Below, one piece after another: positions 2,676 to 31,153 of a DNA stretch of 64,000 nucleotides; the first letter of the stretch is position 1, and every line of letters begins with the position of its first letter. Source of the DNA: an uncultured delta proteobacterium (GTDB lineage Bacteria > Myxococcota_A > Polyangia > Fen-1088). Made by a program: the position numbers and the translations under genes. Where the stretch lies: NCBI GenBank assembly GCA_963767925.1, contig CAVYGB010000008.1:864001-928000 (forward strand), given 5' to 3'. Under the pieces are notes generated by a model. It was not told where the DNA came from and did not search any database. It worked only from the letters and a program-made list of their open reading frames with translations.

Positions 2676-3863
2676 TCAGCGCGCCGTGGGGGAAGGAGAG
2701 GGCGACCCCCCGCCTGATCCCCCACCAGATCCCCCACTTGGGGGTTCTGCCAGGGCCACGAGCTGCGCAATCCTCCCCACCGCCGCCAGCTTCTCCTCCC
2801 GCCCGACGTGGCTGTAGTGCTCGGTCATCGCCTCTGTCACGTGCCCGGTCATGCTGCGCGTGACGATCTCTCCGTTCAGCTGCCGGCTGAGGTTGTTGAA
2901 GGTCCTCCGGAGCCCGTGCGTGGTCACCCGCTTCCAGACCCTCGCCACCCGCAACGCCCTGGCCAGCGGAAACCGCAACACGTCCTTCGGAAGGATCCGC
3001 CCGGCCTCGTCCGTGAACACCCAGCCCGAAGCCAGCCCCGGGTGCTGGCAGGCCAGCATCCGGGCGCGGTGTTCCCGCATCACCCAGGCGAGCAGCGCCG
3101 CGAGCGGCACCGATCGCTTCGTGTCCGTCTTCGTGGTCGAGACGTTCCCCTCCCACTGCGCCCGCCTGACCCGGATGAGCCCGGCAGCCTCGTCGATGTC
3201 CTCCCACCTGAGCGCCGTCGCCTCGCCGTACCGCATGCCCGTGAAGGCAAGCGTCAGCACGAACGGGTAGAGATCCGGGATCTGATCCCGGAAGACGATC
3301 AGCACCCGCGCCAACTCCTCACCGGTGAGGAGGTTCGGCTCCTCGTCGGTGAACGCCCGCACCGGTAGCTTCTTCACCCGGGCCGCCGGGTTGTGGGGCA
3401 GCTCGTACTCGACCACCGCATCCGCCAGCACCATCCTCAGCATCACCACCGCGCCGTTCACGGTCGCCGCCTTGTGAGAAGCGGCCAGCCGGGTATGCCA
3501 CTCCCGGACCTCGGCGTGGGTGAGCTTGTCGAGGAAGAAGTCCCCGAGCACAGGGAGGACCTGCCCCCCGAGCACGTCAGCGTACGTTCTTGCCGTTGAC
3601 GGCTTGAGCCCCGCGGCCTTTGATCTCAGCCACGATTGCACGTAGTCCCGCAGCCTCGGAGCCTCCTTTGCGACCCTTTCGGCGAACCTGATCTCCTCGC
3701 GCCACTGCTCTCGCAGCTTGGCTGCTTCTTCGACGGTCGCTGTGACCGTCCGGTCTACCTCCTTCATCCGTCCTGTTCTTGGGTCGACGGCGCGGAGCCG
3801 GATCCTTTTCCGGCCGTCTGACATGGCTTCGATCCCCGGATAGCGCGTCTGCTTCCTTCTCAT
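2676..3863 (-). CDS. int: Tyrosine recombinase / phage-type integrase
   Basis: TGMRYGE, TTK, HGLRRT, TGH, HY catalytic residues; ATG 3863 preceded by GGAG. Confidence 0.95.
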   Translation of the reverse strand: MRRKQTRYPGIEAMSDGRKRIRLRAVDPRTGRMKEVDRTVTATVEEAAKLREQWREEIRFAERVAKEAPRLRDYVQSWLRSKAAGLKPSTARTYADVLGGQVLPVLGDFFLDKLTHAEVREWHTRLAASHKAATVNGAVVMLRMVLADAVVEYELPHNPAARVKKLPVRAFTDEEPNLLTGEELARVLIVFRDQIPDLYPFVLTLAFTGMRYGEATALRWEDIDEAAGLIRVRRAQWEGNVSTTKTDTKRSVPLAALLAWVMREHRARMLACQHPGLASGWVFTDEAGRILPKDVLRFPLARALRVARVWKRVTTHGLRRTFNNLSRQLNGEIVTRSMTGHVTEAMTEHYSHVGREEKLAAVGRIAQLVALAEPPSGGSGGGSGGGSPSPSPTAR

Positions 3864-4149
3864 CGTGCACTCCATCCGAGGCCATGGGAGCGCCATGGCC
3901 GCGTATCATAGCGTCCAGGTCCTCGGGCCTGAAGAGCATCGTGCGGCCCCGGCGACCGGCGGGGCGCAGGCGGCCGGCGGCGACGTGGTTGCGGATGGCG
4001 GAGGGGGCGCGGTAGTGGAGGTACGCGGCTGCCTGCGCGGTGGTGAGGTAGGGGGACCACGCGACGTGGGTCTGGTCAGCGGTTCGATTTCCGAGCGTGG
4101 ACACGGTGATCCACCGATCGGGGTCATGGGACGAAAAGTTTCCGCTCAC
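3577..4149 (-). CDS. Excisionase-like HTH protein; ORF tail overlaps int
   Basis: YLTTAQAAAYL...AGRL...GRTMLFRPEDLDA pattern directly upstream of int. Confidence 0.7.
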   Translation of the reverse strand: MSGNFSSHDPDRWITVSTLGNRTADQTHVAWSPYLTTAQAAAYLHYRAPSAIRNHVAAGRLRPAGRRGRTMLFRPEDLDAMIRGHGAPMASDGVHDEKEADALSGDRSHVRRPEKDPAPRRRPKNRTDEGGRPDGHSDRRRSSQAARAVARGDQVRRKGRKGGSEAAGLRAIVAEIKGRGAQAVNGKNVR

Positions 4150-4664: not shown

Positions 4665-4838
4665 GCGACGGCTCCAACTTGCGGCCTGTCCGCAGGGCTG
4701 GTCCGAGCGAGGAATCGCGCAGCTAGGTTGGGACCGATACCTCCGGCCTGTCACGCCGGAGGCCGCGGGTGGGCGGCGGCTGATCAGCGACAATCTTGCC
4801 CTTCCGGTACTTTTGGAGAAAGCCTCCAGGTAACCGTC

Positions 4839-5533: not shown

Positions 5534-5806
5534 ATGACGGTTACCGTCGACCTTCCCGAGTCCGCTATCAAGGCGCTTTCGGCGAACACTGAAAAAGACG
5601 CGGTGGCGAAGTTGCGCCTGGCGGCCGCCATGAAGCTGCACGAGCTGGGGCATCTCTCTTCAGGAGCGGCCGCGGAGCTGGCCGGCGTCACGAAGATCGA
5701 GTTCCTCGAGCGCATGTCGGAATACGGCGTGCTCGCCATTCCGCAGACGCCCGGGGAGGCTGAAGAAGACCTGCGGACGCTGCGGGACCCGCGCACCCGT
5801 GGCTGA
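5534..5806 (+). CDS. UPF0175-like antitoxin
   Basis: LRLAAAMKLHELGHLSSGAAAELAG...EFLE; overlaps the PIN gene. Confidence 0.85.
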   Translation: MTVTVDLPESAIKALSANTEKDAVAKLRLAAAMKLHELGHLSSGAAAELAGVTKIEFLERMSEYGVLAIPQTPGEAEEDLRTLRDPRTRG

Positions 5807-6278
5807 GTACGTCTCCAACACGTCACCACTGACGCATCTGCATCGCGCCGACGCTCTCGACGTCCTCCCGGCAGTCTGCGGCGTCATCCTCGTCCCGGAC
5901 GAAGTACGTAGCGAACTGCGCGCGGGAATCGCGGGCGGCAAGGACTGTCCTGACCCCGATGTCATCGCCTGGCTCCAGGTCGTGATTGCCGAGCAGCCAG
6001 CGGATATCGCGACCCTCCGCCTTGGAGCGGGCGAACGCGGGGTGCTCGCCCTCGGCCGGGCGCGCGATGCAATCGTGATCCTGGACGATGGGCCTGCGCG
6101 GGACGCCGCCAAGCGACTCGGGCTACGGGTCACTGGTACAGTCGGCGTGCTTGTTCAGGCACGCCACAAAGGACTCCTTCCGGCTCTTCGTCCGGTCTTG
6201 GACCGGCTGGAAGCTGGGAGGTTTCGTATGTCGCGTGAGCTGCGAACCTGGGCACTCGCCCAGTGCGGAGAGAGCTGA
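5799..6278 (+). CDS. DUF3368-like PIN-domain protein
   Basis: VSNTSPL, VPDEVRSEL, LGAGE, ILDD, GTVGVL. Confidence 0.85.
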   Translation: MAEYVSNTSPLTHLHRADALDVLPAVCGVILVPDEVRSELRAGIAGGKDCPDPDVIAWLQVVIAEQPADIATLRLGAGERGVLALGRARDAIVILDDGPARDAAKRLGLRVTGTVGVLVQARHKGLLPALRPVLDRLEAGRFRMSRELRTWALAQCGES

Positions 6279-8104: not shown

Positions 8105-8455
8105 CGCCGGCGACCCGCTCCCCGCTCACGCGCCGACAGCGCTTTGCACGCCGGCCGCGGCCGCCACCGATTGCCCGTGAGGGGCGTTCAGATGGCGCGC
8201 CCGTCACCGCACCAGCCAGACAGAGAGCGTCCGGGGTGGGCGTTCGGGCTGGGGCGCGAAGGGGCTCCGCGGGGCGGCATTCCACGCGCCTTTAGCGACC
8301 TCGCCTGCTGGCGATTGGGATCCGTTGCTACGGACGGACCGTTGCGCGTAATGGGACTACTGGTGCCCGCCCGCGGCCGGGAGGCCGAGCTCCGACGCCG
8401 CTACGCGAACTGACCCGGCTGGCAGGCCAGCGGCGCCGGGGTTATTGTCCCGGCC

Positions 8456-9223
8456 ATGCCATGGCTCACGCTGTCTCTTCGTCGCCGCCTGGTCACCGGG
8501 TTCGGACCTGGGCGCTTTCCCGCCTTGGTGTGTCTCGCGCTGCTGTGCCCGGTTCACGCGTGTGCAGGGCCGGCAGAGCTGGCGGCGCCGAAGGGGACGG
8601 AGACGTCGGCAAAGACGCCGGTGAGTCCGCCCACCACGAACCCGGAAAAGGCCCGACAGCTGGTAGAAGCGATCATCAAGGTCAGCCAGCTACCGCGGTT
8701 GGACCGGGCGAAAGCCGCCGAGATCCTCGGTACCCGGCTGGGTGCCCAGAGGAACGCCACCGAGTACCGCATGGAATGGTCCCTCGAGCCCACGCCGCTG
8801 ATCGCGGAGGGGACCGCCGTGGGAGGCCGCCGCACGGGCTGGACGCTCGTGGAGATCGTGCCTCACCCCTCTCTCGATCTGGCCTTCGAGGACCTCGTGC
8901 CCCACCTGCTCGACGCGAGCTACACGTTGGACGCGCGAAGAGTCCACCTCGTCCACGACTCGGTGGCCACGAGCATCACGCGCATCAGACACGTGTTCCG
9001 GATCGAAGGCGGCGAATTGACCATCGAAGTACCGACCACGGTGCCGCCCGAGACCCCCGACCAGGAATCGAAAGCCATGGGCGAAGGCTGGGATGCAGCG
9101 AAAGGCAAAAGCGCCAGCCGGAGTCAGGTGATGACCGTCTACTTCAACAACGAGCTCGGCAGAAGCTGGCGAAACCCGCGCGCGCTCCGGCAGTTTCGGG
9201 AGCCTCGGAAGGCACCCAACTGA
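8456..9223 (+). CDS. Exported/lipoprotein partner of the HExxH protein (putative immunity), copy 1
   Basis: Hydrophobic N-terminus with Cys; paralog of 21588-22337 (LAFEDL, GELTIE, AKGKSA). Confidence 0.7.
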   Translation: MPWLTLSLRRRLVTGFGPGRFPALVCLALLCPVHACAGPAELAAPKGTETSAKTPVSPPTTNPEKARQLVEAIIKVSQLPRLDRAKAAEILGTRLGAQRNATEYRMEWSLEPTPLIAEGTAVGGRRTGWTLVEIVPHPSLDLAFEDLVPHLLDASYTLDARRVHLVHDSVATSITRIRHVFRIEGGELTIEVPTTVPPETPDQESKAMGEGWDAAKGKSASRSQVMTVYFNNELGRSWRNPRALRQFREPRKAPN

Positions 9224-9227
9224 CCGG

Positions 9228-10130
9228 TTACGGGTTGGAGCCTGAGTTGGCCTGGCGGTCGTCCCACTCTTTGCTGAGCTGCTGAGCAGCGAACTGCTGC
9301 TTGGTGATGTAGGTGCCATCCGGGTTGATTCCGGCGGGCTCGCGCGACATGACCTCGGTCATCTCGGCTTTGGCCTGCGCTTCGGAGATCTCGCCACTCT
9401 TGTACCGCTCGTAGATGGCGATGTATTCGTCGTCGAATTTCCCCCGGATGCCGACGTCCGGCCCGTCCTCGGTCGCGCCGTCGGTGTACATGATCTCGTC
9501 GCGGGCGCGGGCGTTCTCGAAGGCGGCCGCACCCTCGTGCTCCATCAGCGGCTGCACGTTCTTCGAGACGTATTCGCTCTTGGTGTCGTAGTCCACCCGC
9601 TCAGGGAAGGGCGTGGCTGCATGACCGATCTCGTGGGCCAGCAGAGAGGCGAGGTCGTGGCCGCCCTTGGCCAGGTCCTGCTCGTCGATGTAGATCTTCT
9701 TCTCGTTCGGGTCGGCTTCCGATCCGCTGCCGTACGGGACGATCTTGATCTCCCAGTTGTTGGCTTTTGCCTCGGCCCACTGCTGTCGCAGGGTCGGGCT
9801 GCGGTTGATGACGTCATCAATCTTTGCGCCCAGACCTGTCTTGACCGGCGGCGGCTCCGCGCTGGCCGGGGGTGCTGGCGGCGGAGCTTCGACCTCCGGG
9901 GTGGTCGGCGTCTGGGACGTGGGGTTCGCCGGCTGTGGGTTTCCACCACCACCGCCGCCGCCCCCGAAGTAGGGGTGGTTCGTGGCGGGTGGGTCCACGC
10001 CGTCGACGTGCCAGATCGAGTCCGGGTCCGGCGCCTCGAGTGGCGCCTGCTCGATCACTTCTATGGAGACGAAGCTGCCATCTACCGGGAGTGGGGTGCC
10101 TTGACCAGTGACGGAGTTGATACCTGACAT
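9228..10130 (-). CDS. Putative zinc metallopeptidase effector, copy 1
   Basis: LLAHEIGHA plus downstream EG; low-complexity Pro/Gly N-terminus; no signal peptide. Confidence 0.72.
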   Translation of the reverse strand: MSGINSVTGQGTPLPVDGSFVSIEVIEQAPLEAPDPDSIWHVDGVDPPATNHPYFGGGGGGGGNPQPANPTSQTPTTPEVEAPPPAPPASAEPPPVKTGLGAKIDDVINRSPTLRQQWAEAKANNWEIKIVPYGSGSEADPNEKKIYIDEQDLAKGGHDLASLLAHEIGHAATPFPERVDYDTKSEYVSKNVQPLMEHEGAAAFENARARDEIMYTDGATEDGPDVGIRGKFDDEYIAIYERYKSGEISEAQAKAEMTEVMSREPAGINPDGTYITKQQFAAQQLSKEWDDRQANSGSNP

Positions 10131-10166
10131 GCGAAGTTCTCCTGGAAATTAACCACCTGTACAGAG

Positions 10167-10192
10167 TTGTCGGCGCGCGTTTGCAGTGTTGC
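10167..10192 (-). promoter_or_regulatory. GCAAC-N14-CCGACAA promoter-like motif
   Basis: Shared with 12628-12655 and 23285-23311 at the same distance from the ATG. Confidence 0.65.
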
Positions 10193-10429: not shown

Positions 10430-11308
10430 TCAGTTGTCGGCGCTGGCGGCGCAGCGGAAGCCGGCGTCGGACACCACGTAGGGCTTCGTGGGGTTGTTGC
10501 GGTTGTAGATGCGGGAAAAGAACTCGTCGTCGCGCCAACCGCCGCCCTTGATGACGTGGCCGCGGGCGCCGGGGCACCTCCTCTGGCCGGGGCAGGGGCC
10601 GCGTGGGTCGCGGCCAGCGCCGCCTTTCTTCGATTCCGCGGAGATATACCAGTCGCTGACCCACTCGGGGACATTGCCCGTGAGGTCGCAGAGCCCTTCG
10701 GCGGAGTTGCCCTTGGGGCGGCTGCAAACTGGGCGGGTGAAGGGCCTCGCGGCCGGCCGATCGGCGGCGCAGGGGTCGGGATTCTCATCCGTGATCGTGA
10801 CGGCCTGCTGGCAACCGGGAGTAGCGGGATTGAAGCCCCAGGGGAACACGCGGCCGTCGGCGATTGGACCAAGGGCCGCCCGCTCCCACTCTGCCTCGGT
10901 TGGAAGGCGCATCCCCACCCAGCGGCAATAGGCCTCGGCCTGCCCCCAGAGCACGCCGGTCACCGGGTGCTGGTCGCGTGCGGGGAGCCGCGAATTCACA
11001 TCGCCAGCCGGATTTGCTGCGATCTCCGTGCAGGCCCCCGCGGCCACGCATCGCTGGTAGGCCGCCACGGTAACCTCGGTGCGGTCGATGCGGAATGGAT
11101 CCAGACAGACCCGCCGGGCGGGCCCGGACAGGCCCTTCCGACAGCCGAGCTTCAACCCGCACCCCACCACGATACAGCCCCCCGGAATGGGCACCATCTC
11201 CGCCCCAGTGGGTTTCACTTCCGACGCTGGCTGCGCTGCTCGCGCGGGCGCGGTCGCGAGCTGTGCCGCAACGGCCACACCTGCCAGCCAGCCGCGGTTG
11301 CTCGGCAT
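10430..11308 (-). CDS. FGE-sulfatase (SUMF1-like) domain protein with signal peptide
   Basis: IDRTEVT, RLPTEAEWERAA, FPWG, DLTGNVPEW, KGGGW, GFRCA; TGATG coupling to upstream gene. Confidence 0.9.
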   Translation of the reverse strand: MPSNRGWLAGVAVAAQLATAPARAAQPASEVKPTGAEMVPIPGGCIVVGCGLKLGCRKGLSGPARRVCLDPFRIDRTEVTVAAYQRCVAAGACTEIAANPAGDVNSRLPARDQHPVTGVLWGQAEAYCRWVGMRLPTEAEWERAALGPIADGRVFPWGFNPATPGCQQAVTITDENPDPCAADRPAARPFTRPVCSRPKGNSAEGLCDLTGNVPEWVSDWYISAESKKGGAGRDPRGPCPGQRRCPGARGHVIKGGGWRDDEFFSRIYNRNNPTKPYVVSDAGFRCAASADN

Positions 11309-12591
11309 CAGCGATATAGCTCCGGGTGGCGCAGGCGAAGGACCTCGTCGCGGCGTTGTTCCAGAGCCGGGCGAGCGGCAGCAGGCAGGTCAGGGGAGGC
11401 GAGGGCGTTCTGCAGGTCCTGGTAGTAGCGATCCAGCTGGGGATCGCGTGCGCCCGCAGCCAGCGTGCGCCGGCCGTCCTGGTATTCGGCCCAGACCCCT
11501 TGGCTGGCCCGCAGCGCGTTCTCGGCGTCGACCCACGTGACGCTCGGGAACTTCTGTTCGCCGTCGGCGACGTTCCAGGATGCCGCGTTCTTCCCAACTG
11601 GGTCCACCGCGCTGGGGTCGTCGCCGTCGGTGCGGCTGGCCCAGGTGCGCAGGTGGGCAGGGGCGCCGGACTCGGCTAGCGGGCTTGTGTGGCTGTAGGC
11701 CCAGAAGCTCTTCAAGTTGGGGAAGTCCTGCCGGAACTGGTCGAGCTCGGTGGGCTTGGCGGAGTAGCAGGACGACATCGCCAGGTGCTCGATCTTGCCG
11801 GCTCCCTCAGGAAAGATCCTGGCGATGTCCCGGATCGTCTGGTGTTCGATCCAGCCCGAGCCGCCGTCGCCGCTGACCGAGCGGCCACTGCCGTGGCCGG
11901 AGATGACCAGTCGGTTGGCCGCGAGGTCGCCGGTGCCCACCCGATGCAGCGCCAACGCGAGCTGGGCGAGCTCGTCCCGCGTGTTCACTTCGGCCCGCCC
12001 GAGTTGGTCGACCAGGGCGTCGGCGCGCGAGGCCGGGACCTTGTCGGGGCCGGCGACCAGGGCGTCACGGAAAGCCTTGCGGCCGACGTCGGTGCCGAGG
12101 TCGAAGCGGCGGCCATCGTAGTCGACCCTGCCTTCCGAGGCGTAGGCCTTGATGGCGTGCACGCCGCCGGTTCCGGCCGGCGTCTCCGACCGCAGCGCCT
12201 GCACCTCCCGATCCGACGCCGGCCGCATCCCGAGGTGGACGATCCCCTGGGACTGCGCGGCCAGGCGCCGGCTGGCCACCTCTTCCTTGAGCTTTTCGTA
12301 GGCCGCGCCGGCCATGGTGGGGGCAGCTGCCGGGGCCTCACTCTGCCTGTGAGCGAACGACTGCGACGATCCGTTCGAGTCGACCTGGTCCAGCAGGTCG
12401 AACAGGGCGCCCATCTCTCGGGCTCCTCGGATCTGCGCGTCCGGGCCGGCGACCTTCTGCAGGTCGGCCGGGTCCAGCCCGGCATCCAACAGCTTCTTTT
12501 GCAGGTCCGGCGGCAGATCGTTGATGTTGAGAGAGCCGCCGTCGGCCCCGAGCTCCCGGATGAACTGCCCGCGGTTGATGGTGTTCGACAT
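11308..12591 (-). CDS. Putative caspase-like (clan CD) cysteine peptidase effector
   Basis: LVISGHG and HLAMSSC motifs ~40 aa apart; no signal peptide. Confidence 0.55.
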   Translation of the reverse strand: MSNTINRGQFIRELGADGGSLNINDLPPDLQKKLLDAGLDPADLQKVAGPDAQIRGAREMGALFDLLDQVDSNGSSQSFAHRQSEAPAAAPTMAGAAYEKLKEEVASRRLAAQSQGIVHLGMRPASDREVQALRSETPAGTGGVHAIKAYASEGRVDYDGRRFDLGTDVGRKAFRDALVAGPDKVPASRADALVDQLGRAEVNTRDELAQLALALHRVGTGDLAANRLVISGHGSGRSVSGDGGSGWIEHQTIRDIARIFPEGAGKIEHLAMSSCYSAKPTELDQFRQDFPNLKSFWAYSHTSPLAESGAPAHLRTWASRTDGDDPSAVDPVGKNAASWNVADGEQKFPSVTWVDAENALRASQGVWAEYQDGRRTLAAGARDPQLDRYYQDLQNALASPDLPAAARPALEQRRDEVLRLRHPELYR

Positions 12592-17353: not shown

Positions 17354-18709
17354 TACGCCGGCTTCCAGCCGAATCGATTCGGAAACCGGGTCACCATTCG
17401 CGGTGTGACGCTGCCCTGTCTGGTGAATCCAGAGCACCATCAGCTGCACGCCGCTGCCACGTATTATACGTCTCCCTTCGAATCGGCGATGATCATGGCC
17501 CTCGATCCAGGCGGGGGGCGCTTTTACCGGGGCCGAGGCCACATGATTCATCCCGTCCATGTGCCCGGTGTGCGGCTCACCGCCAACGTGGCTTACGCGT
17601 CCGTGGCTACCCGATTGTTCGGGTCCGGCATCGTCGGGGCGGGGAAGGTCATGGGACTGGCTCCTTTCGGGGGCGTTTCCCCCGGGGAGCCGGTGGACTA
17701 CAACCGGATGACCACCATCGAGGAGCTCTATGCCCTGGCGGCCCGCGAGCCGGTCATCCTGTACGAGAAGAGTCGGCCCCTGAATGCGACCTTGGCCTTC
17801 CACGTGCAGCGCGGACTGGAGATCCAGCTTACCGAGTCGTTGCAGGCTCTCTTCCGGATGTCGGCCCGCCTGGGCACCGAGCCCAGCCTGTGCTTGAGCG
17901 GCGGCACGGCCTTGAACTCCGCCGCGAACCAGGTCGCCTTCGCCGCTTCGGGATTCGAACGGCTGCACCTCTACCCAGCTTGCGGCGACGACGGAACGGC
18001 AGTGGGAGCGGCGCTCTGGTACTGGCATCACGTCACGGGGCGACCGCGCCGTGCGTTCTGCAACCGCGAGCTCATGTATTCGGTGAGGACGTATGAGGAC
18101 AGGATCGACCAGAGCCTGGCGGCGCAGGGCGACCGCCTCAACGTGGAGCGTGTGGACGACTACCTTGACAGGGCCGCGGAGTTGATCGCGCAAGGGAAGA
18201 TCATCGGCTGGTTTCAAGGTGCGAGCGAGGTTGGTCCACGGGCCCTGGGAAACCGAAGCATTCTGGCTGACCCTCGCCGGAGCGAGATGAAGGACGCCTT
18301 GAATTCCCGGGTGAAGTTCCGGGAGGGGTTCAGGCCATTCGCCCCTTCCGTGCTCAAGGAGCGTGGCCAGGAGTGGTTCGGCCTGGAGGACAGCCCCTTC
18401 ATGCTGCGGGTCGCTCCGGTGCTGAAGAGGGGAATCCCTGCCGTGACCCACGTGGACGGGACAGCCCGCGTTCAGACGGTGGACCAGCGAGACAACCCCG
18501 CCTTTTACGATTTGATAGAGAGGTTCGAAGCCAAGACCGGGGTCCCGTTGATCCTCAACACCTCTTTCAACATCCGTGGCGAGCCGATCGTCGAGACGCC
18601 CGAACACGCGATCAACGCGCTCTTGGAGAGCGACCTCGACCATCTGGTCTTCCAGCGGCGAATCGTGAGAAGGGCCGATTCGGTCTGGCCGAGTGTCGCC
18701 GCCGCATGA
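17354..18709 (+). CDS. Carbamoyltransferase (NodU/CmcH family), N-terminally truncated
   Basis: EHHQLH very near the start, GKVMGLAP, SGGTALN, GPRALGNRS, FREGFRPFAP, HVDGTARVQTV, LNTSFN. Confidence 0.88.
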   Translation, partial: YAGFQPNRFGNRVTIRGVTLPCLVNPEHHQLHAAATYYTSPFESAMIMALDPGGGRFYRGRGHMIHPVHVPGVRLTANVAYASVATRLFGSGIVGAGKVMGLAPFGGVSPGEPVDYNRMTTIEELYALAAREPVILYEKSRPLNATLAFHVQRGLEIQLTESLQALFRMSARLGTEPSLCLSGGTALNSAANQVAFAASGFERLHLYPACGDDGTAVGAALWYWHHVTGRPRRAFCNRELMYSVRTYEDRIDQSLAAQGDRLNVERVDDYLDRAAELIAQGKIIGWFQGASEVGPRALGNRSILADPRRSEMKDALNSRVKFREGFRPFAPSVLKERGQEWFGLEDSPFMLRVAPVLKRGIPAVTHVDGTARVQTVDQRDNPAFYDLIERFEAKTGVPLILNTSFNIRGEPIVETPEHAINALLESDLDHLVFQRRIVRRADSVWPSVAAA

Positions 18710-19313: not shown

Positions 19314-19460
19314 GTGGCTGACTTCCTCAAGGGCGCGGGATCTTTCCAGCGGAGCCTGGCCGCGTACGAGCGATTGGCCCGCGATCGTGCGAGCCATCCA
19401 TCCACCGAGCCCCCGCCGCCCAAGCGGCGCGGGGATCCCGACGACGAAGACGGAGGAGCG

Positions 19461-20304
19461 CATGGCTAGCGAAGAAATGGATCGCCTGTACGAGCACCTG
19501 CGCAGGATCGGGCTGCGCCACGCCGCCCAGAATCTGGACGAGCACATTCGACAGGCCGCCGCGCTCAAGCTCGGGCACCTCGCGTTCATTGCACGCATCG
19601 CCGAGGCGGAGGTGTTGGCACGCAAGGAGACGGGCACACAAAAACGGATCAGCCAGGCCGACTTCCCCGAGATTTGTCGGCTGGAAGACTACGATTTCAA
19701 GAAGCAGCCGAGCCTCGACCGCAAGCAGGTGCTCGACCTCGCCGAGCTGGGCTTTGTCGACCGCCGTCAGGCCGTTCTGTGGATCGGCCCGAGCGGCGTG
19801 GGCAAGACCCATCTGGCGGTGAGCCTCGGTGTGCGCGCGTGTCAGGCTGGCTACCGCGTGCGCTTCTGCCGCGCCTACGAGCTGTTGACCCGCCTCTACG
19901 CCTCGCTCGCCGACGACACGCTCGACCAGATCCTCGACGAGATGTGCAAGCCGGATCTATTGATTGTGGACGAGCTAGGAAACAGTCCCCGCAAGCGCGA
20001 GCACGACTTCGCCGGCGTCTTCTTCGAGCTCGTCGCCCGCCGATACCGTCGCGGATCGATCATCCTCGCCACCAACCTCGGCTTCGAGGAGTGGCCACAG
20101 GCGCTCGGCAGTCCCTCCCAGGTCACACCCGCCCTCGACCGCCTCATCGAGGGCGCGCACATCTTCACCTTCCCCAAAGACGCCAAGAGCTTCCGCGTCG
20201 ATCGAGACTCGTCCCCCGGCCCACTGCCGCCGAAGCGAGGTCGACGTCCCTCCGGCCATCGCGGCCACCGAGACGCCGACCGGAAGCGCCCGGAGCAATG
20301 GTGA
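19461..20304 (+). CDS. istB: IS21 ATP-binding helper
   Basis: LEDYDFKKQP, GPSGVGKT, LLIVDELG, ATN, LDRL. Confidence 0.92.
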
Positions 20305-21587: not shown

Positions 21588-22337
21588 TCATTTCGACCGA
21601 CGCTGGTGACGCTCCCGGTACTCTCGGAGGGTCGGTGTTTTCTGCCAATCCTGACTGAGCTCGGTGCCGACGTAGATCTTGCTGATGAGGCCGCGCGGGG
21701 CGCTCTTTCCCTTCGCCACCTCGTATGCAATCTCCGTGGCCTTGCGGTCGCGGTCCGGGGTGTCCTTCGCAAGGGTCACCGGGATCTCGATGGTTAGCTC
21801 TCCGGCGGAAACCCTGAACCGATATAGAGACCTGTGCATCTGCTTGGCCAGGCTGTCCTCGTGGACATGGACCCAGACGTTCTCCAGCGCGAACGGGAGA
21901 TCGAGCAGCTGGGGCGCCAGGTCTTCGAATGCGAGATAGAGCGAAGGCTGGGGGTCGAACCAAAGGGTTTGCCATACCTGGTCCTTGCCGGCCCGTATGG
22001 TAGCTCCCTCGGAAATGGCTTCCGTCGGCGCCAGCGGCCATTCGACGCGGTATTCGTGCACCTGGTCCTTCGGACCCAGGCCGGAACCGAGCAATGCGGC
22101 TGCCTTTTCGAAATCCAGCGGCGACAGACGCGAAACCTTCATTAGCTGTTGGATCAGCTTCTCGACCTTCGCTTCGGGCCTCGGGACGAGCGCTCCGTTC
22201 GGCTCCTTCGCCGGGGATGCTCCAGCGGCCGACGCCGCAAGGCCTGCGCAGCAACAGACGAGCAGCCCAAGCCGCTCCGCCTGGGATCGTCGGAAAGACG
22301 ATGCTCGGGATGTGGCGCCAAACACTTGGAGACTCAC
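21588..22337 (-). CDS. Exported partner (putative immunity), copy 2
   Basis: Signal-like N-terminus; paralog of 8456-9223; GTGA overlap with upstream gene. Confidence 0.72.
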   Translation of the reverse strand: MSLQVFGATSRASSFRRSQAERLGLLVCCCAGLAASAAGASPAKEPNGALVPRPEAKVEKLIQQLMKVSRLSPLDFEKAAALLGSGLGPKDQVHEYRVEWPLAPTEAISEGATIRAGKDQVWQTLWFDPQPSLYLAFEDLAPQLLDLPFALENVWVHVHEDSLAKQMHRSLYRFRVSAGELTIEIPVTLAKDTPDRDRKATEIAYEVAKGKSAPRGLISKIYVGTELSQDWQKTPTLREYRERHQRRSK

Positions 22338-23248
22338 TGCTTGTGCCTTTCGTCGAAGTCCTCGCGGTGCTTCTCCAGAAAGACCTCCTCGGTGGTCTTG
22401 TAGCTCCCATCGGCATTGCGGCCTCTCGGCTCCTGACCAGCCCAGAAGGCCATCTCTGCAATGGCCTCGTCGACGGTAAGAATGTCACCGCTTTTCCATC
22501 GCTCGTAGATCTTGATGTATTCGTCGTCGAACCCTCCGCGAATCCCGATGTCCGGGCCCATGCCAGGACTTGGGGAATTCCTGATCTCGTCTCTTGCCCT
22601 GGCGTTGGTGAAGGCAGCCCCGGCTTCTCCCCAAATCTCCGTTCGGGTGGCGTTCGTTGCGTAGCCTTCGCGATCACCGATGTCTACGGGCGCGCGACCT
22701 GGCCCTCTGACGGCGTGGTCTATCTCGTGGCTGGCGAGCGAGGAGAGCTCGGCCGGAGTCAGGACATGCCCATCGACCAAGGACTTCGGATTGATATAGA
22801 TGACTTTGTCTGGCGGCCCGTGATGGGTCTCATTCGGTCCGTTCCGAAACTCGATGTGATAGCCCTTTTCCTTGGCCTTCGCCCACAGCTCGCGCATGGT
22901 GGGACTCTTGTTCAGGATCTCGTCGACCTCCTTGCCCAGGCCGGACACGATGGGGGGCGCGAGGCGCGGTTTCTCGGGCTTCGCCGGTGCGGCAACCGGA
23001 ACGGGCGGCCGTTCCGGTTGCGGACCGGACGGCCCACCTCCACCAACTATCACGGTCTCTCCGCCCAAGGGCGCCACCGCCAACCGTTGCGGGGGAGGCG
23101 GCTCCTCGATGATATCGATGCTCTGGGGTGTGCCCGGGCCGAGGGGATCAGTTGGGGCGTCGGGGTCCACGTCCGGGCCGCCGGCGGTTCCGACATCGGC
23201 TGAAGGAGTGCTCACGCCTCGACCGGTGATGCTGTTGAAGCTCGTCAT
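22334..23248 (-). CDS. Putative zinc metallopeptidase effector, copy 2
   Basis: SHEIDHA, NARARDEI, GPDIGIRG; ATG 23248 after AGGAG. Confidence 0.72.
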   Translation of the reverse strand: MTSFNSITGRGVSTPSADVGTAGGPDVDPDAPTDPLGPGTPQSIDIIEEPPPPQRLAVAPLGGETVIVGGGGPSGPQPERPPVPVAAPAKPEKPRLAPPIVSGLGKEVDEILNKSPTMRELWAKAKEKGYHIEFRNGPNETHHGPPDKVIYINPKSLVDGHVLTPAELSSLASHEIDHAVRGPGRAPVDIGDREGYATNATRTEIWGEAGAAFTNARARDEIRNSPSPGMGPDIGIRGGFDDEYIKIYERWKSGDILTVDEAIAEMAFWAGQEPRGRNADGSYKTTEEVFLEKHREDFDERHKQ

Positions 23249-23284
23249 CAGGCTCTCCTGCTCAGGTCTGGTGGGACGTACGCT

Positions 23285-23347: not shown

Positions 23348-24987
23348 TGGTCGGCATGCCCATGGTGAAGAGAGACGCGCTCGCCTTCGTGGGAGGTTTT
23401 CACAAGCCCACACCCGGCCGCGCGCAGGGCACCCATCGGTCGGCCTACCTGGTGTGTCAGGCCCTGGCGAGGGTGGGGCGGTACGGTACCTTCGACCTCT
23501 ACCGGGACCAACAGCGAAGCCACGGCGCCCTCGTGTTGCCGTCGAGCCCACCCACCCGGGTTTTCGAGAAGACGCGGTTGCACAGCACGCGTGACCGCTA
23601 CGCTGCCATCCATGTCGCCAACGGCGAGCAGATCTTCACCGCGCCACACCAGCTGCGCCCGGCGGGCGATTGGGCACCGGTGATCTGCAGCATCGGCACC
23701 GCCCACGCCAACAGCCAGTGGGCGAACCTCTTCCTGTCGCTGGCGTCGGGCACGATCCGTTCCACCGACGCGTTCATCTTCAAGTCCGAAGCGGCCCGGT
23801 CGCTGTTCCGGGGGGTCTGGGGACGGTGGTCGCAGCGGTTCGGGTTCCAGTCGCCGTTTCCGGCCATCGCGACCGTCATCCCCAACGGGGTGGATGTGCA
23901 TCAAAACTGTCGTTCCGAGACTCTGCGTTCGCAGACGCGCGATCGACTGGGCGTCCATCAGCAGGAAATCGTATATCTCTCGTTCAACCGGCTGGACCCG
24001 GGCATGAAAGGCGACCTCGAGGCGCTGGTCCTCCATTGGACACGGGTCCTGGCAAACGTGCCACGCGCGCTACTGGTCCTGGCCGGTGTGACCGCCGATC
24101 GCGACTACGTTGGACATTTGCGACAGCTCGCCCGCGCGGTTGGCGCCGCCAACCGGATCCTGGTCATCGACAACCCCCACGAGCTGTTCCCGGACGCGCG
24201 CGGCAGCTTGATGTCCGCGGCCGACGTCTTCGTTCATCCGAGCACCGGCATCGAGGAGGCCTCGCCGCTGGCCGTGCACGAGGCGCAGGCGCACGCCCTC
24301 CCGATCATCGCCGCCCGCTGGGCTGGCATCCCGGAGGTGGTCACCCACGGCGAGACCGGCTTCCTCATCGACACGCGCGTCGCTCCGCTGCGACCTCATG
24401 TGGCGACCACGATGTTTGGCGAGACCGACCGAACCCATCTGGTCCACGCGGGCCGCACCGTCTGGTGCGACTGGCGAGCCTTCGTCGACGCGGCGACCGC
24501 GCTCGCTGATGAGGACCGCCGCGCAGCCATGGGCGCCGCCGCCCGCCGCCGGGAACAATCCCGCGACATCGAGGCAGTGGCGCGCGAATACGTGACCTTC
24601 TTCGATGCGGCCAGCGCCGCCGCCGAGAAGGCCTGGGCCGGCCCGGCACCCTCTCAACCGCTGGTCCACCTCGACGACGTGCTCGCGGCTCAGGCCGCCG
24701 GGACGCTGGAGCCAGGACACCGCTTGCGCCTGGCTGACCAGCAGCCTCTGCCGCTGCTGACCCGAGGGTCCTATTCCGAATCCTCGGCTCAGCTCTCTTG
24801 TGTGCTCGAGCTCTTCAAGAGCGAGGAGGTCGTATCCGTTGCGGACGCGGCTGCCGCGGCGGCTGCCTTCGCGCGCGCCGCCGACCCTGCCGAGTTCGGC
24901 GACGAGACTGATCTGGCGATCTCCTCGCGCTTGCTCGTCCGCCTGCTGAACGCCGGCGTGCTGGAACTCGATCGCGAGCCGACTTGA
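23348..24987 (+). CDS. Large family 4 glycosyltransferase with C-terminal extension; start uncertain
   Basis: VIPNGVD, ADVFVHPS, EASPLAVHEA (E-x7-E), GIPEVVTHGETGFL. Confidence 0.88.
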
Positions 24988-25098: not shown

Positions 25099-25938
25099 TT
25101 ACATCTCCCCAGTCGCCTCCGGGGTAATTGTCGTCGCATGATCGGTAGTTGTCGTAGTTGTCGCTGGGCCTGAGTCACCTCTCTTGCGCGCGGCTTCGTC
25201 GCGGTGGCTGAAGCCGGTCATCTCGATGATGACGGCGTGGTGGATGAGACGGTCGATGGCCGCGGCAGTGGTCATGGGATCCTTGAAAATTCGGATCCAG
25301 TCGCTGAAGACCAGATTGCTGGTGATGATGACGCTCTTGCGCTCGTACCGTTCGGCCAGGAAGGTGAAGAGCACCTCCATCTCGTCCCGGCTCTGCTGGA
25401 CGTAGCCGATGTCGTCCAGGATGACTGCGTGATAGATGTCCAGCGTCCCCAGCTCACGCTCGAGGCGCAGGTCGCGCTTGGCCGCGAGCAGCCTCTGGAC
25501 GAGCGCAAAGGTCGGCGTGAACAGGACGCGATACCCGCGGCGGATGAGCTCGTGTCCGATAGCCGCGACGACGTGGGTCTTGCCCCGGCCCGGCAGCCCG
25601 AAAGCCAGGAGGTTTTCTCCCCGCTCCACGAAGCCGCCTTCGCAGAGATCCGGCAGCTGCTTCGCCACTTTCTGCGGCAGTCGGCCTCGGTTCAGGGTCG
25701 CCAGCGTCTTCTCCGACGGCAGGTCCGAGTCGCGGAGAGCGCGGTCGACGCGTCGGACTCTGCGCTCCTCGACCTCGAGTTCGGCCAGGTGGTGCAGGTA
25801 TTGGCCGAAGGTCCACCCCTCTCGCGTTGCCTTCGCGGCCACCTCCTCGGCGTACCGACCGAAGGCCGGTAACTTCAGGGCGCGCATGAGCACGAGGAGC
25901 GCATCGAGGGCGCATACCTTGCCGTCAGGCGCGGTCAT
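25099..25938 (-). CDS. istB: IS21 ATP-binding helper
   Basis: GLPGRGKT, ILDDIGY, ITSNL, AAIDRL. Confidence 0.92.
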   Translation of the reverse strand: MTAPDGKVCALDALLVLMRALKLPAFGRYAEEVAAKATREGWTFGQYLHHLAELEVEERRVRRVDRALRDSDLPSEKTLATLNRGRLPQKVAKQLPDLCEGGFVERGENLLAFGLPGRGKTHVVAAIGHELIRRGYRVLFTPTFALVQRLLAAKRDLRLERELGTLDIYHAVILDDIGYVQQSRDEMEVLFTFLAERYERKSVIITSNLVFSDWIRIFKDPMTTAAAIDRLIHHAVIIEMTGFSHRDEAARKRGDSGPATTTTTTDHATTITPEATGEM

Positions 25939-26211
25939 GACGCCACCTCCGCAAGGAGCGTGTCGTAGGCGGCGAGATCCACGGTCGGCCTGTCGAGCAC
26001 CGGCACCACGCACGCGGCGGTGCTTGCCGCCTGCGCGCATCTTCCCTTCACAGTATCCGCCGTCACGGCCGCCCCTTCAGACAGCAGCGACGCGATCGCT
26101 TGCTCCACGTCGGCCTCCATGGTGCTCGCGGCCAGGTGGAGGATGCGCAGGTACTCGACGTCTCCTTTGGTCCCCGACTTTGCGGCTTGGATCGCGTCGT
26201 AAGCCTGCCGG
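25935..26211 (-). pseudogene. istA: IstA C-terminal fragment
   Basis: EYLRILHLAA, VDLAAYDTLL; ATGA overlap with istB; cut at 26212. Confidence 0.75.
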
Positions 26212-27479
26212 TGCACATTTCGGCGAACGTGATCACCGAGATCGGTCCATCGTGATCATGTCGGAGCGAAGCGACGCTGTCTGGTCGCGTTAGTACCTAT
26301 TTCGATAGGCCGGCCGCGCGCCACGCGATGATTCCGCAGACAAAATGAAGCATGGCGAAGTACGTGTCCTCGCGAATTTCCCACCGGATGAGAATGCGTC
26401 GGAATCTGTTCATCCAGCCGTGGGTCCTCTCGACGACCCATCGTCGTGCCTTGACGCCGGGCTTGCGCTCGAGTTCCTTCTTCTCTTCGCCCCGGCTGCG
26501 CACGTGAAGTGTGAACCCGTGGGCAGCTCCGATAGCCCGCGGCTCCTTGTAGTCGAATGCCTTGTCCAGGCAGAGGCCTTGGGGAGAAGTCTTCGTCGGC
26601 CGCGGGCGAGTCACTGGGATGCTGTCGATCGTTTCCGGCATCAATTTGTGGTCGTTCCGATTCGCCCCGTCAACCGCCAGACCGAGGGGCACGCCCGCGC
26701 CATCGACCAGGAGGCTGCGTTTGGTACCGTCCTTGGCGCGATCGGTTGGGTTTGGTCCGGTTTTTTTCCCCCCCGAGGGGCGCCTTCGTCATGGCCCCAT
26801 CCATCGACATCCAACTCCAGTCGATGCCCTTCGCCTCATCGTAGGCCAGAAGCCCCTGGCGCCAGAACTCGTGAAACACTCCCGCGTCCAGCCACTCCCG
26901 GAATCGTCGGTACGCCGACGCGCAGGAGCAGATGCCCGTCGCGTCCAGAGCGTTCCACCGGCAACCGGTTCGGAGCACGAAAAGAATCGCGGCCATGGCA
27001 TTTCGATCTGGCACCCGAGGCCGGTGGCATCCGAGCGGGTGCACGGGGCGCGGGGGAAGCAGCGGCTCCAGCTTGGCCCAGAGGTCGTCGGACAGCTTCC
27101 AACTGGGCGCCTTGGCGGTGCGTTTCATGCCCCTACAAGCGGGCCAGATCGTTGATCGCGCAATTTTTTGACCGTTTCGACAGGGCGGTCTACGTTGCCT
27201 TCACGTCCTAACGAAATAGGTTCTTAGTGGTTATTCGGTCTCGGTCTCCTTCTCGTTCTTTCGCCTCGAAGGCCCCTTTAGCACGAGCCGGTGGGCGTTG
27301 TGCAGGATGCGGTCGAGGATGGCGTCTGCGAGGGTCTGATCGGCCAGGTGGGCGTGCCAGGTTTTCGGCGGGAGTTGGCTGGTCATGATCGTGGAGCGAT
27401 TGCCGTACCGGTCTTCGAGGATTTCGAAGAAGTCACGCCTCTCCTGCTCGCCGGGCGGGGTGAGGCCCCAGTCGTCGAT
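26212..27479 (-). mobile_element. Remnant of another IS21-family element: terminal repeat plus istB 3' part at 27231-27479
   Basis: TGCACATTTCGG end with CGTGATCA repeats; IDDWGL...EDRY..STIMTSQLP...DAILDR read on the minus strand. Confidence 0.78.
26293..27223 (-). mobile_element. Complete 931-bp IS5-family element with a two-ORF transposase (26670-27128, 26297-~26765)
   Basis: 17-bp IR G(T/A)ACCTATTTCG(A/T)TAGG, TTA duplication, LSDDLW, RTGCRW, DKAFD, RWVVERT. Confidence 0.93.
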
Positions 27480-30169: not shown

Positions 30170-30685
30170 TCATTTGCGCCTCGTGGCCGCGCGCAGCCCG
30201 GCTGCGGCAGTGTCTGCAAGCAGAAAGAGCCGGTTCGGCGTCGCCGGGAACTGCACGAATCCGAACGTTCGATAGAACGCTATCGCCGCTTCGTCCTTCG
30301 CGTCGACGACAATCGCGAGAGCGGCGACGGACTCGGCCGCAGCGAGGACGCGGGTGATGGCATCGGCGATCATTAATTCGCCCAGGCCCTGGCCGCGGCC
30401 ACGCACGTGACGGGCGAGGCGGCCGATGAGCGCCGCCGGGAGGTCCTTGTACTTGGGGAGCTTGCGCGTGAGGTTGGGCGGAAGGTCGTCGAGCGCCAGA
30501 GTGAACATGCTCAGGCTGTAGAAACCGACGATCCCCTGCTCGTCCAGAGCGACGAAGACGCGGGCGATGTTGCGGCGCTCGTCCTGGCCGGCTCGGGCAC
30601 GGAACCATGTGTCCAGGGCCGGCGCGCCGCACTCGAAGGTGCTCCGGTCGTGCCTGCTGCGCAGCGGCTCGAAGCGGATATTCAC
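30170..30685 (-). CDS. GNAT acetyltransferase toxin (TacT/AtaT-like)
   Basis: HDRSTFECG..ALD, PAALIGRLA, GQGLG, VDAKDEAAIAFY..FGF. Confidence 0.9.
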   Translation of the reverse strand: MNIRFEPLRSRHDRSTFECGAPALDTWFRARAGQDERRNIARVFVALDEQGIVGFYSLSMFTLALDDLPPNLTRKLPKYKDLPAALIGRLARHVRGRGQGLGELMIADAITRVLAAAESVAALAIVVDAKDEAAIAFYRTFGFVQFPATPNRLFLLADTAAAGLRAATRRK

Positions 30686-30697
30686 AGGACCGGCAGT

Positions 30698-30976
30698 CTA
30701 ATCGGAGAACGCGCGGTGGCGGCGCAAGGCGCGGACGAGCCGGTCGGTGGGGGGAGGGGGGTTCGCCACGGCGGCCAGGAATGTGTCGCGGTCTGCGCCA
30801 CGCAGGACCATGCGCTCGTGCTCTTCGAGGATCCGGCGGGCGCCCTCGTAAGCGAGGTCGCCCGCGCCGAGGCCCGAGATAGCGCTCGCCCGCTGGATGA
30901 CCTTCCGCACTGACGGAGCCACCCGCAGCTCCATCCGCTCCGTCTTTTGCTCGCGAGTTCGCCGTGCCGTGGCCAT
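30698..30976 (-). CDS. DUF1778 (TacA-like) antitoxin
   Basis: KTERMELRV...IQRA...FLAAVANPPPP...L; upstream of the GNAT toxin. Confidence 0.88.
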   Translation of the reverse strand: MATARRTREQKTERMELRVAPSVRKVIQRASAISGLGAGDLAYEGARRILEEHERMVLRGADRDTFLAAVANPPPPTDRLVRALRRHRAFSD

Positions 30977-31153
30977 GAAATAGTCCCACGCACAGTGTAC
31001 GGTGATTCTCCGTACAAGTCCAACTGCTGGCGCGCTCGACGACGTCGACAACATTACAAATTTCGTCGACACCGTCGCCTCGCTCCACTTCCACGCGGCC
31101 TCGACTCCTTTCGAAGGCCGGTGGGTTCATTAGGAACGCATGCCAGCCCGACG

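Follow-up and report, generated by a model that had tools for sequence, protein, structure and literature searches.

Several described toxin systems are built around peptidases with an HExxH motif. In the Tpe–Tpi pairs, namely the C-terminal domain of VgrG2b with PA0261 in Pseudomonas aeruginosa and Tpe1 with Tpi1 in Acinetobacter baylyi, toxicity depends on periplasmic targeting and on the HExxH glutamate, immunity requires a signal peptide and acts by binding, and the toxin either extends VgrG or is a cargo protein in its own right; the structure of the VgrG2b C-terminal domain has been solved (PMC6899460). The X-Tfe/X-Tfi pair XAC0096/XAC0097 contains a 'putative HExxH metallopeptidase', XAC0096 (PMC6759196, PMC8740702), and X-Tfis against envelope-acting effectors are described as periplasmic lipoproteins (PMC10933484). 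Among polymorphic toxins, the zincin domains Tox-MPTase1-5, HopH1-like and ALF-MPTase are small, end Rhs, PAAR, VgrG or WXG proteins, are swapped between delivery systems and have an adjacent immunity gene, and the 2012 table gives no immunity family in its Tox-MPTase rows (PMC3482391). Here we describe two diverged copies of a gene pair in a stretch of 64,000 nucleotides, the window, from an uncultured delta proteobacterium (Myxococcota_A; Polyangia; Fen-1088; assembly GCA_963767925.1, contig CAVYGB010000008.1, positions 864,001 to 928,000). Each pair encodes a putative HExxH metallopeptidase and a partner that is predicted to be exported. We consider it likely that each pair consists of a periplasm-acting antibacterial effector and its cognate periplasmic immunity protein.

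Copy 1 comprises a peptidase of 300 residues (9228..10130, minus strand), identical (100%) to the cluster representative P0001, and a partner of 255 residues, the candidate immunity protein (8456..9223, plus strand). Copy 2 comprises a peptidase of 304 residues in which HEIDH and the distal Glu are preserved (22334..23248, minus strand) and an exported partner of 249 residues (21588..22337, minus strand). Over their full lengths the peptidases are 35% identical (107/303, E 1e-43); between the partners, identity is 42% across 199 residues (83/199, E 2e-50). The original prediction had called both genes paralogous from short shared motifs, and all of these are seen in the alignments: SPT, HE.(G/D)HA, NARARDEI and GPD.GIRG.FDDEYI.IYER.KSG in the peptidases, and KVS.L, EYR.EW, LAFEDL, GELTIE.P and AKGKSA in the partners. 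When each of the four proteins was compared with the whole window by tblastn, exactly two copies of each were found (E 1e-37 to 1e-47), and beyond these only noise (E 0.046–0.93). The GC content at third codon positions is 0.74–0.83 in all four open reading frames (ORFs), a coding-type composition, by which they appear to be real genes; the values of copy 2 (0.74–0.75) lie somewhat below those of copy 1 (0.83 in the peptidase gene, 0.81 in the partner gene).

The two copies differ in geometry. In copy 1, the partner stop codon TGA (9221–9223) and the peptidase stop codon TAA (TTA on the plus strand, 9228–9230) face each other across the gap CCGG (9224–9227), and the two genes are therefore convergent; the junction TGA-CCGG-TTA (9221..9230) is a near-palindrome with the stop codons 4 bp apart. 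In copy 2, both genes lie on the minus strand and the peptidase stop codon overlaps the GTG start codon of the partner in GTGA (22334..22337), so that the partner is translationally coupled to the peptidase. A Shine-Dalgarno sequence, AGGAGA, was read 7 nt upstream of the peptidase 1 ATG (10138..10143, minus strand) and again 5 nt upstream of the peptidase 2 ATG (23254–23259, minus strand). The peptidase 2 ORF stays open upstream to a GTG at 23551. Because AGGAGA precedes both peptidase ATGs, we place its start at the ATG at 23248, which is further backed by the N-terminal similarity of peptidase 2 to copy 1 and its relatives. Both the arrangement of the genes and this start codon agree with the original prediction.

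Neither peptidase matched a Pfam or NCBIfam model at E ≤ 1, apart from noise. A word-based search recovered 20 clusters among 5.8 billion, and an alignment of these 20 sequences (residue numbers refer to copy 1) has invariant columns at S111, H166, E167, H170, E199, A202, N206, R210, E212, G230 and D233. The predicted zinc-binding and catalytic motif HEIGH (H166-E167-x-x-H170; 9621..9635, minus strand) is thus present in 20/20 sequences. The same holds for E199 (9534..9536, minus strand), which stands 29 residues past H170 on the next helix and is the candidate third zinc ligand; E212 is likewise invariant. A site made of HExxH and a distal Glu had been proposed for this protein, and both the motif and a candidate for the distal Glu are invariant in these columns. 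The AlphaFold2 model computed from the alignment has a mean predicted local distance difference test score (pLDDT) of 77.7, with a confident domain from approximately residue 95 to 297 and 171 residues at pLDDT ≥ 90. In peptidase 1, 10-residue block means are 37–53 over residues 1–90, and most exceed 90 from residue 91 onwards. The predicted metallopeptidase domain (residues 95–300; 9231..9848, minus strand) is modelled as three strands, a helix that holds HExxH (157–172), a long helix that holds E199 (184–215) and further helices in the C-terminal part. The preceding region (residues 1–94; 9849..10130, minus strand) is acidic, rich in Pro and Gly and predicted to be disordered.

In a Foldseek comparison of the peptidase 1 model with the PDB, the 13 best-ranked matches were all metallopeptidase folds (M48, ArdC, selecase, lethal factor, abylysin, M1 and ZMPSTE24). 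These matches were weak, with E 0.011–0.4, template modelling scores of 0.19–0.30 on the query and 13–22% sequence identity. When PDB chains were searched with the profile at E ≤ 10, only 3c37, 1v3y and 9cca were returned, with nothing below E 0.28; the match to 3c37 (E 0.28) is the HExxH stretch, 'I.I..(18)..LLAHEIGHA'. We take the peptidase to be a zincin, probably of the gluzincin type, that has no close relative of solved structure.

The family of the partner had not been recognised in the original prediction, and the partner matched no model in Pfam or NCBIfam. Its relatives numbered five in a single-sequence search and 11 clusters in a profile search, and by sequence comparison this is a new and tiny family (11 clusters). 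In a comparison with the Atlas, its nearest clusters are unnamed ones from Pseudomonadota (0.93), which we treat as a lead only. Partner 1 begins with a predicted Sec signal peptide (residues 1–37; 8456..8566, plus strand), which has an RRR n-region, the core FPALVCLALLCPV and A-C-A before G38. Its hydropathy reaches a maximum of 2.42 at residue 22 (2.48 in partner 2), and its relatives at 91%, 89% and 77% identity begin at the same residues. A basic n-region, a 12-residue hydropathy of at least 2.24 and an AxA-like cleavage site, the latter judged by eye, are common to all 11 partners whose N-terminus is complete. By contrast, N-terminal hydropathy is at most 1.34 in all 20 peptidases, so that a stretch resembling a Sec signal is found in 0/20; in the first 50 residues of peptidase 1 the highest 12-residue value is 1.15. 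Export, which the original prediction gave to the partner, is thus predicted for all complete partners compared and for none of the peptidases. In both copies, a gene whose product is predicted to be exported thus adjoins the peptidase gene, which is the layout that is usual for a periplasm-acting effector and its periplasmic immunity protein.

The tight linkage of the two genes in two diverged copies could also mean that the partner is a secretion helper, that is, an adaptor, chaperone or co-secreted accessory that loads or activates the peptidase rather than inhibiting it. Adaptor genes do adjoin type VI secretion system (T6SS) effectors, such as the DcrB-family gene in the Burkholderia locus described below. 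However, the Sec-type signal peptide of all 11 complete partners is hard to square with this role, as the known effector adaptors (DUF1795/Eag, DUF4123 and DUF2169) are, to our knowledge, cytoplasmic. One relative, P0171 (414 residues), contains the partner domain twice in tandem in one polypeptide. Tandem double domains are a common form among immunity proteins, and P0171 fits an inhibitor better than an adaptor. We therefore regard a helper role as quite unlikely. The linkage itself is known from the two copies in this window. That two unrelated genes became neighbours twice by chance seems highly improbable, because each family is represented by very few clusters (20 and 11 of 5.8 billion) and because, in two copies that are ~40% identical and stand in different local contexts, the genes overlap or are separated by 4 bp.

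Next, we compared each copy with its relatives elsewhere. The nearest relative of peptidase 1 is P0002 (75% identity), and those of peptidase 2 are P0042 (61%) and P0038 (52%). Partner 1 is nearest to P0021 (91%), and partner 2 to P0170 and P0025 (52%). The paralogs within the window share only ~40%. As each copy is closer to outside relatives than to its paralog in the window, the two families divide into the same pair of lineages. This pattern fits co-divergence or separate acquisition of the two pairs rather than a recent duplication in place, and it bears out the strong divergence that had been proposed for them.

To place the peptidase in a wider family, its alignment was used as a profile against 1.84 billion cluster representatives, of which 876 matched at E ≤ 1e-3, 631 at E ≤ 1e-10 and 156 at E ≤ 1e-30. 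Of the 150 best representatives, 147 retain HExxH, the exceptions being two fragments and P0038 (YExxH). A Pfam scan covered 142 of these 150; the other eight are the window protein and seven known close relatives. The domain forms the C-terminus of seven full VgrG spikes among the 142, and four more are C-terminal fragments of VgrG. Other carriers are five Rhs-repeat proteins, 11 with PAAR, three with Tox-PAAR-like domains, 12 with an N-terminal WXG100 domain and two with a C-terminal XVIPCD. In P0020, a direct match to copy 1, the peptidase domain is followed by XVIPCD (E 5e-29); the relatives that bear XVIPCD are P0020, P0095 and P0108. In total, delivery modules occur in 44/142 scanned representatives. 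Movement among varied carriers is the defining behaviour of polymorphic-toxin cargo (PMC3482391). As 44/142 relatives carry VgrG, PAAR, Rhs, WXG100 or XVIPCD modules, the HExxH domain is best read as such cargo. The domain is widespread yet unnamed and borders Pfam DUF6782. A Flp/TadE-like 'GLSTVEY' prepilin-type leader with a transmembrane segment opens 5/150 representatives (P0049, P0052, P0057, P0069 and P0071), and the toxin domain may therefore also ride carriers resembling those of the Tad pilus. A separate profile scan of genome contigs gave 255 stretches, of which seven were confirmed, all from Flavobacteriia. These cover residues 126–185 only, at 35–37% identity, and were therefore not taken as members of this peptidase family.

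Annexin repeats stand beside the peptidase domain in P0127 and P0138 (2/142), an unusual combination for a bacterial toxin. Annexin domains on these relatives would fit a peptidase that is directed against non-bacterial targets (hosts, prey or matrix), or one that remodels the envelope of its own producer, with the partner as an exported substrate or regulator. Zincin effectors against eukaryotes do exist, such as HopH1/NleD and the lethal-factor-like toxins (PMC3482391). However, a dedicated exported neighbour that diverges together with the peptidase is a mark of self-protection. Anti-eukaryotic effectors usually have no such neighbour. Moreover, fusions to PAAR, Rhs, WXG100 and XVIPCD are mostly contexts of antibacterial delivery (PMC8740702), and we consider a non-bacterial target or a role in envelope remodelling unlikely.

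A tblastn search of plasmids with the peptidase gave four weak matches and two usable loci; the same search with the partner gave no match. In Burkholderia stagnalis (NZ_CP156686.1, 2265980–2278345; locus L008), a 953-residue VgrG ends in the peptidase domain, and downstream of it come an ORF that contains a lipobox-like LAGC, a gene of the DcrB family and one for a prePAAR-PAAR-Rhs protein. To judge from its genes, this is a typical T6SS auxiliary cluster. The cluster is unannotated, the record having three annotated features in 3.17 Mb. In Comamonas, a 196-residue peptidase overlaps a downstream ORF of 166 residues with a signal peptide. The downstream ORFs of the two loci weakly resemble each other (E 6e-8). 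As neither is detectably related to the window partner, the layout of a toxin followed by an exported protein recurs with different partner families, and an immunity role is argued from position and localisation, not from homology. A third match, on a Nocardia plasmid (L010, 5746–6657), was set aside for its degenerate motif, HWISH. In P0038, which belongs to the copy 2 lineage, the active site is degenerate as well, with YEIDH in place of HExxH. Both P0038 and the Nocardia homolog may be inactivated or repurposed copies.

In copy 2 and at both distant loci, the toxin gene is followed by the exported ORF on one strand. For this reason, inversion of the immunity gene in copy 1 is a reasonable inference and the simplest account of the flipped geometry. 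The inversion had been part of the original prediction: the flipped order relative to copy 2 and the two distant loci supports it, and the breakpoints do not add to that support, as no repeats or recombinase sites were found there. A search for inverted repeats around copy 1 gave only short pairs with 71–92% complementarity, none of which brackets the partner gene alone. One inverted repeat of 20 nt (8129–8148 / 10158–10177, 80% complementary) brackets the whole two-gene module and is probably due to chance at 68% GC. Partner 1 is co-oriented with the glycosyltransferase genes upstream of it, and peptidase 1 with its two upstream neighbours on the minus strand. No terminator-like site was found between the convergent genes, and scans for promoters and terminators gave nothing above the expectation from shuffled sequences. 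As a consequence of the inversion, expression of the immunity gene in copy 1 may have been freed from the toxin promoter.

Taken together, fusions to delivery carriers, the conserved motif, a signal peptide on the partner only and the matched lineages of the two families add to the original claim of a cognate toxin–immunity pair, which appears largely right yet unproven. The following scheme sets out what we infer of toxicity, site of action, binding and specificity. The peptidase of ~300 residues, which has no Sec signal, would be synthesised in the cytoplasm, and its C-terminal ~200 residues would form a zincin (HExxH plus Glu) metallopeptidase. The family to which it belongs is found attached to delivery modules of the T6SS (VgrG, PAAR and Rhs), the type VII secretion system (T7SS; WXG100) and the Xanthomonas-type type IV secretion system (T4SS; XVIPCD). 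Once delivered into a rival diderm cell, the peptidase would cut a peptide bond in a target in the cell envelope, which may be peptidoglycan peptides or envelope (lipo)proteins. The partner of ~250 residues would be exported to the periplasm of the producer, where it would bind and block cognate peptidase that comes from sister cells or leaks out of the cytoplasm. The two pairs represent old lineages, whose specificities probably differ.

Several observations weigh against an effector–immunity pair. No recognised delivery domain was found on the window peptidases with Pfam or NCBIfam, and the 49 window ORFs that were scanned include no component of a T6SS, T4SS, T7SS or Tad system. The Foldseek search with the peptidase 1 model, which included the disordered N-terminus of 94 residues, gave no match to the PDB at E ≤ 0.001. 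The partner model is of moderate quality (pLDDT 60.6), and its comparison with the PDB by Foldseek recovered no known immunity fold, the best match being meaningless (E 0.11, probability 0.08). When the partner profile was aligned with the downstream ORFs of the Burkholderia and Comamonas loci by hhalign, probabilities were 0.11 and 0.14, respectively. Finally, the copy 1 partner is not co-transcribed with its peptidase. A complex prediction for peptidase 1 (95–300) with partner 1 (60–255) scored 0.01 against a mark of 0.32, without controls; we draw no verdict from it and do not use it.

If the pairs are effectors with their immunity proteins, how the window peptidases are delivered becomes of interest. 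The N-terminal motifs NS[IV]TGxG and DG[VI]D of peptidase 1 recur in relatives, and in the window subfamily this region is made up of M-x-x-x-NS[IV]TGxG, a run of acidic residues, DG[VI]D and a linker of Gly and Pro. Among the 150 best representatives, NS[IV]TGxG occurs in five and DG[VIML][DE] lies within the first 120 residues in 18, and longer relatives have a helical N-terminal domain ('SSAAxW...AAExY...DGVD...DPNRP'). Residues 1–94 are a candidate region for delivery or recognition, and no other candidate signal was seen. A further step would be that the disordered N-terminus of ~95 residues is a new signal for secretion or loading, that the partner has a new immunity fold, and that the copy 1 immunity gene was uncoupled by inversion. 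We find this new delivery route a possible but doubtful extension. Were it true, the copy 1 immunity gene could be expressed alone, in an 'immunity first' or orphan-immunity-like manner, and a single unnamed zincin toxin domain would be shared by the T6SS, the T7SS, the Xanthomonas-type T4SS and even Flp/Tad-pilin-like carriers. If the effector–immunity pair were confirmed, a zincin toxin domain (876 representatives) that is largely missed by Pfam and spans at least three secretion systems could be named and assigned a function. It would also add a new family of periplasmic immunity proteins and flag a conserved N-terminal region as the possible mark of an unrecognised delivery route. The general picture of effector–immunity biology would be unchanged by this pair.

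The first 34 kb of the window are rich in insertion sequence (IS) elements and also hold an integrase and toxin–antitoxin genes. Three IstB (IS21) genes or fragments lie at 3–650, 19387–20304 and 25099–26040, and copy 2 is located between IS21 remnants. A tyrosine integrase (2676–3896), pieces of an IS4/5 transposase (26297–27128), a PIN gene (1294–1695), a UPF0175/DUF3368 pair (5534–6278) and a TacA-GNAT pair (30170–31072) were also found. Defence genes often gather in such stretches, and the pairs might accordingly be an anti-phage defence or another intracellular conflict system composed of a protease and a sensor. This is very improbable, as PADLOC at E ≤ 0.1 gave no match for six proteins, and matches to PHROGs were weak: both peptidases matched phrog_87, a metallo-protease (E 0.02), and partner 1 an unrelated 'DNA repair protein', phrog_26464 (E 0.0006). 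Moreover, an exported partner would be unable to sense cytoplasmic events. A search of a phage collection gave no match to the peptidase.

Other features of this part of the window were noted in passing. A tRNA-Asp call (4716–4805) is unusually long at 90 nt. A carbamoyltransferase gene (17405–18709, plus strand) matched only positions 125–346 of the N-terminal Pfam model; an IS21 IstB gene lies ~680 bp downstream of its 3' end, and the carbamoyltransferase gene may have been truncated by insertion. Just upstream of peptidase 1 and on the same strand lies a second coupled pair (10430–12591, minus strand). Its first gene encodes a protein of 427 residues with no match in Pfam, PDB, PADLOC or PHROGs and with a His/Cys pattern, 'ISGHG ... 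SSCYS', that by eye is reminiscent of caspase-like peptidases; its nearest Atlas clusters are hypothetical proteins of Myxococcota (0.92). The stop codon of this gene overlaps the start of a gene for a 292-residue protein with an FGE-sulfatase domain (E 8e-45) and a signal-peptide-like N-terminus. Here, too, an effector-like gene may stand beside one for an exported partner.

How do the two pairs compare with known systems? The putative minimal gluzincin core of a strand, an HExxH helix and a Glu helix is shared, in the model, with minimal gluzincins and M48-like peptidases (3c37, selecase 4qhf to 4qhj and ArdC 6i89), which are its best matches in structure, although these matches are weak, at 13–22% identity. 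The relatives of the window domain sit on Rhs, PAAR, VgrG or WXG100 carriers, as do the zincin domains of polymorphic toxins. However, the window proteins gave no match at E ≤ 1 to a Pfam model of Tox-MPTase or of the other named families, and Pfam presumably holds models for the Tox-MPTase families. A link exists to PF20573 (DUF6782, 'putative metallopeptidase family'), which 31/142 relatives match at E ≤ 1e-3 over the same HExxH region; six of the 142 reach its gathering cut-off (27 bits). This places the window branch as a divergent relative of DUF6782. Neither window peptidase matches PF20573 at E ≤ 1, and the two thus form part of a branch that the curated model does not cover. No mention of DUF6782 was found in the literature searched.

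Like the Tpe–Tpi pairs, each window pair combines an HExxH peptidase that has no Sec signal with a partner that has a signal peptide. It differs from them in its partner family, in that the window peptidases are not VgrG fusions, and in the absence of T6SS genes from the window; in addition, the peptidase profile matches no VgrG chain in the PDB at E ≤ 10, and there is none among the Foldseek matches listed. Like X-Tfe proteins, P0020, P0095 and P0108 join the same peptidase domain to a C-terminal XVIPCD, whereas XVIPCD (PF20410) is absent from both window peptidases; XAC0096 was compared by its description only. Without a VgrG match in sequence or among the listed folds, and without XVIPCD, the pair would thus work like Tpe–Tpi and X-Tfe/X-Tfi and yet be a member of neither. 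The substrate of the periplasm-acting metallopeptidase effector VgrG2b is described as still unclear (PMC6899460). Comparison with a second family, unrelated to it and with two natural variants of specificity, would therefore be useful.

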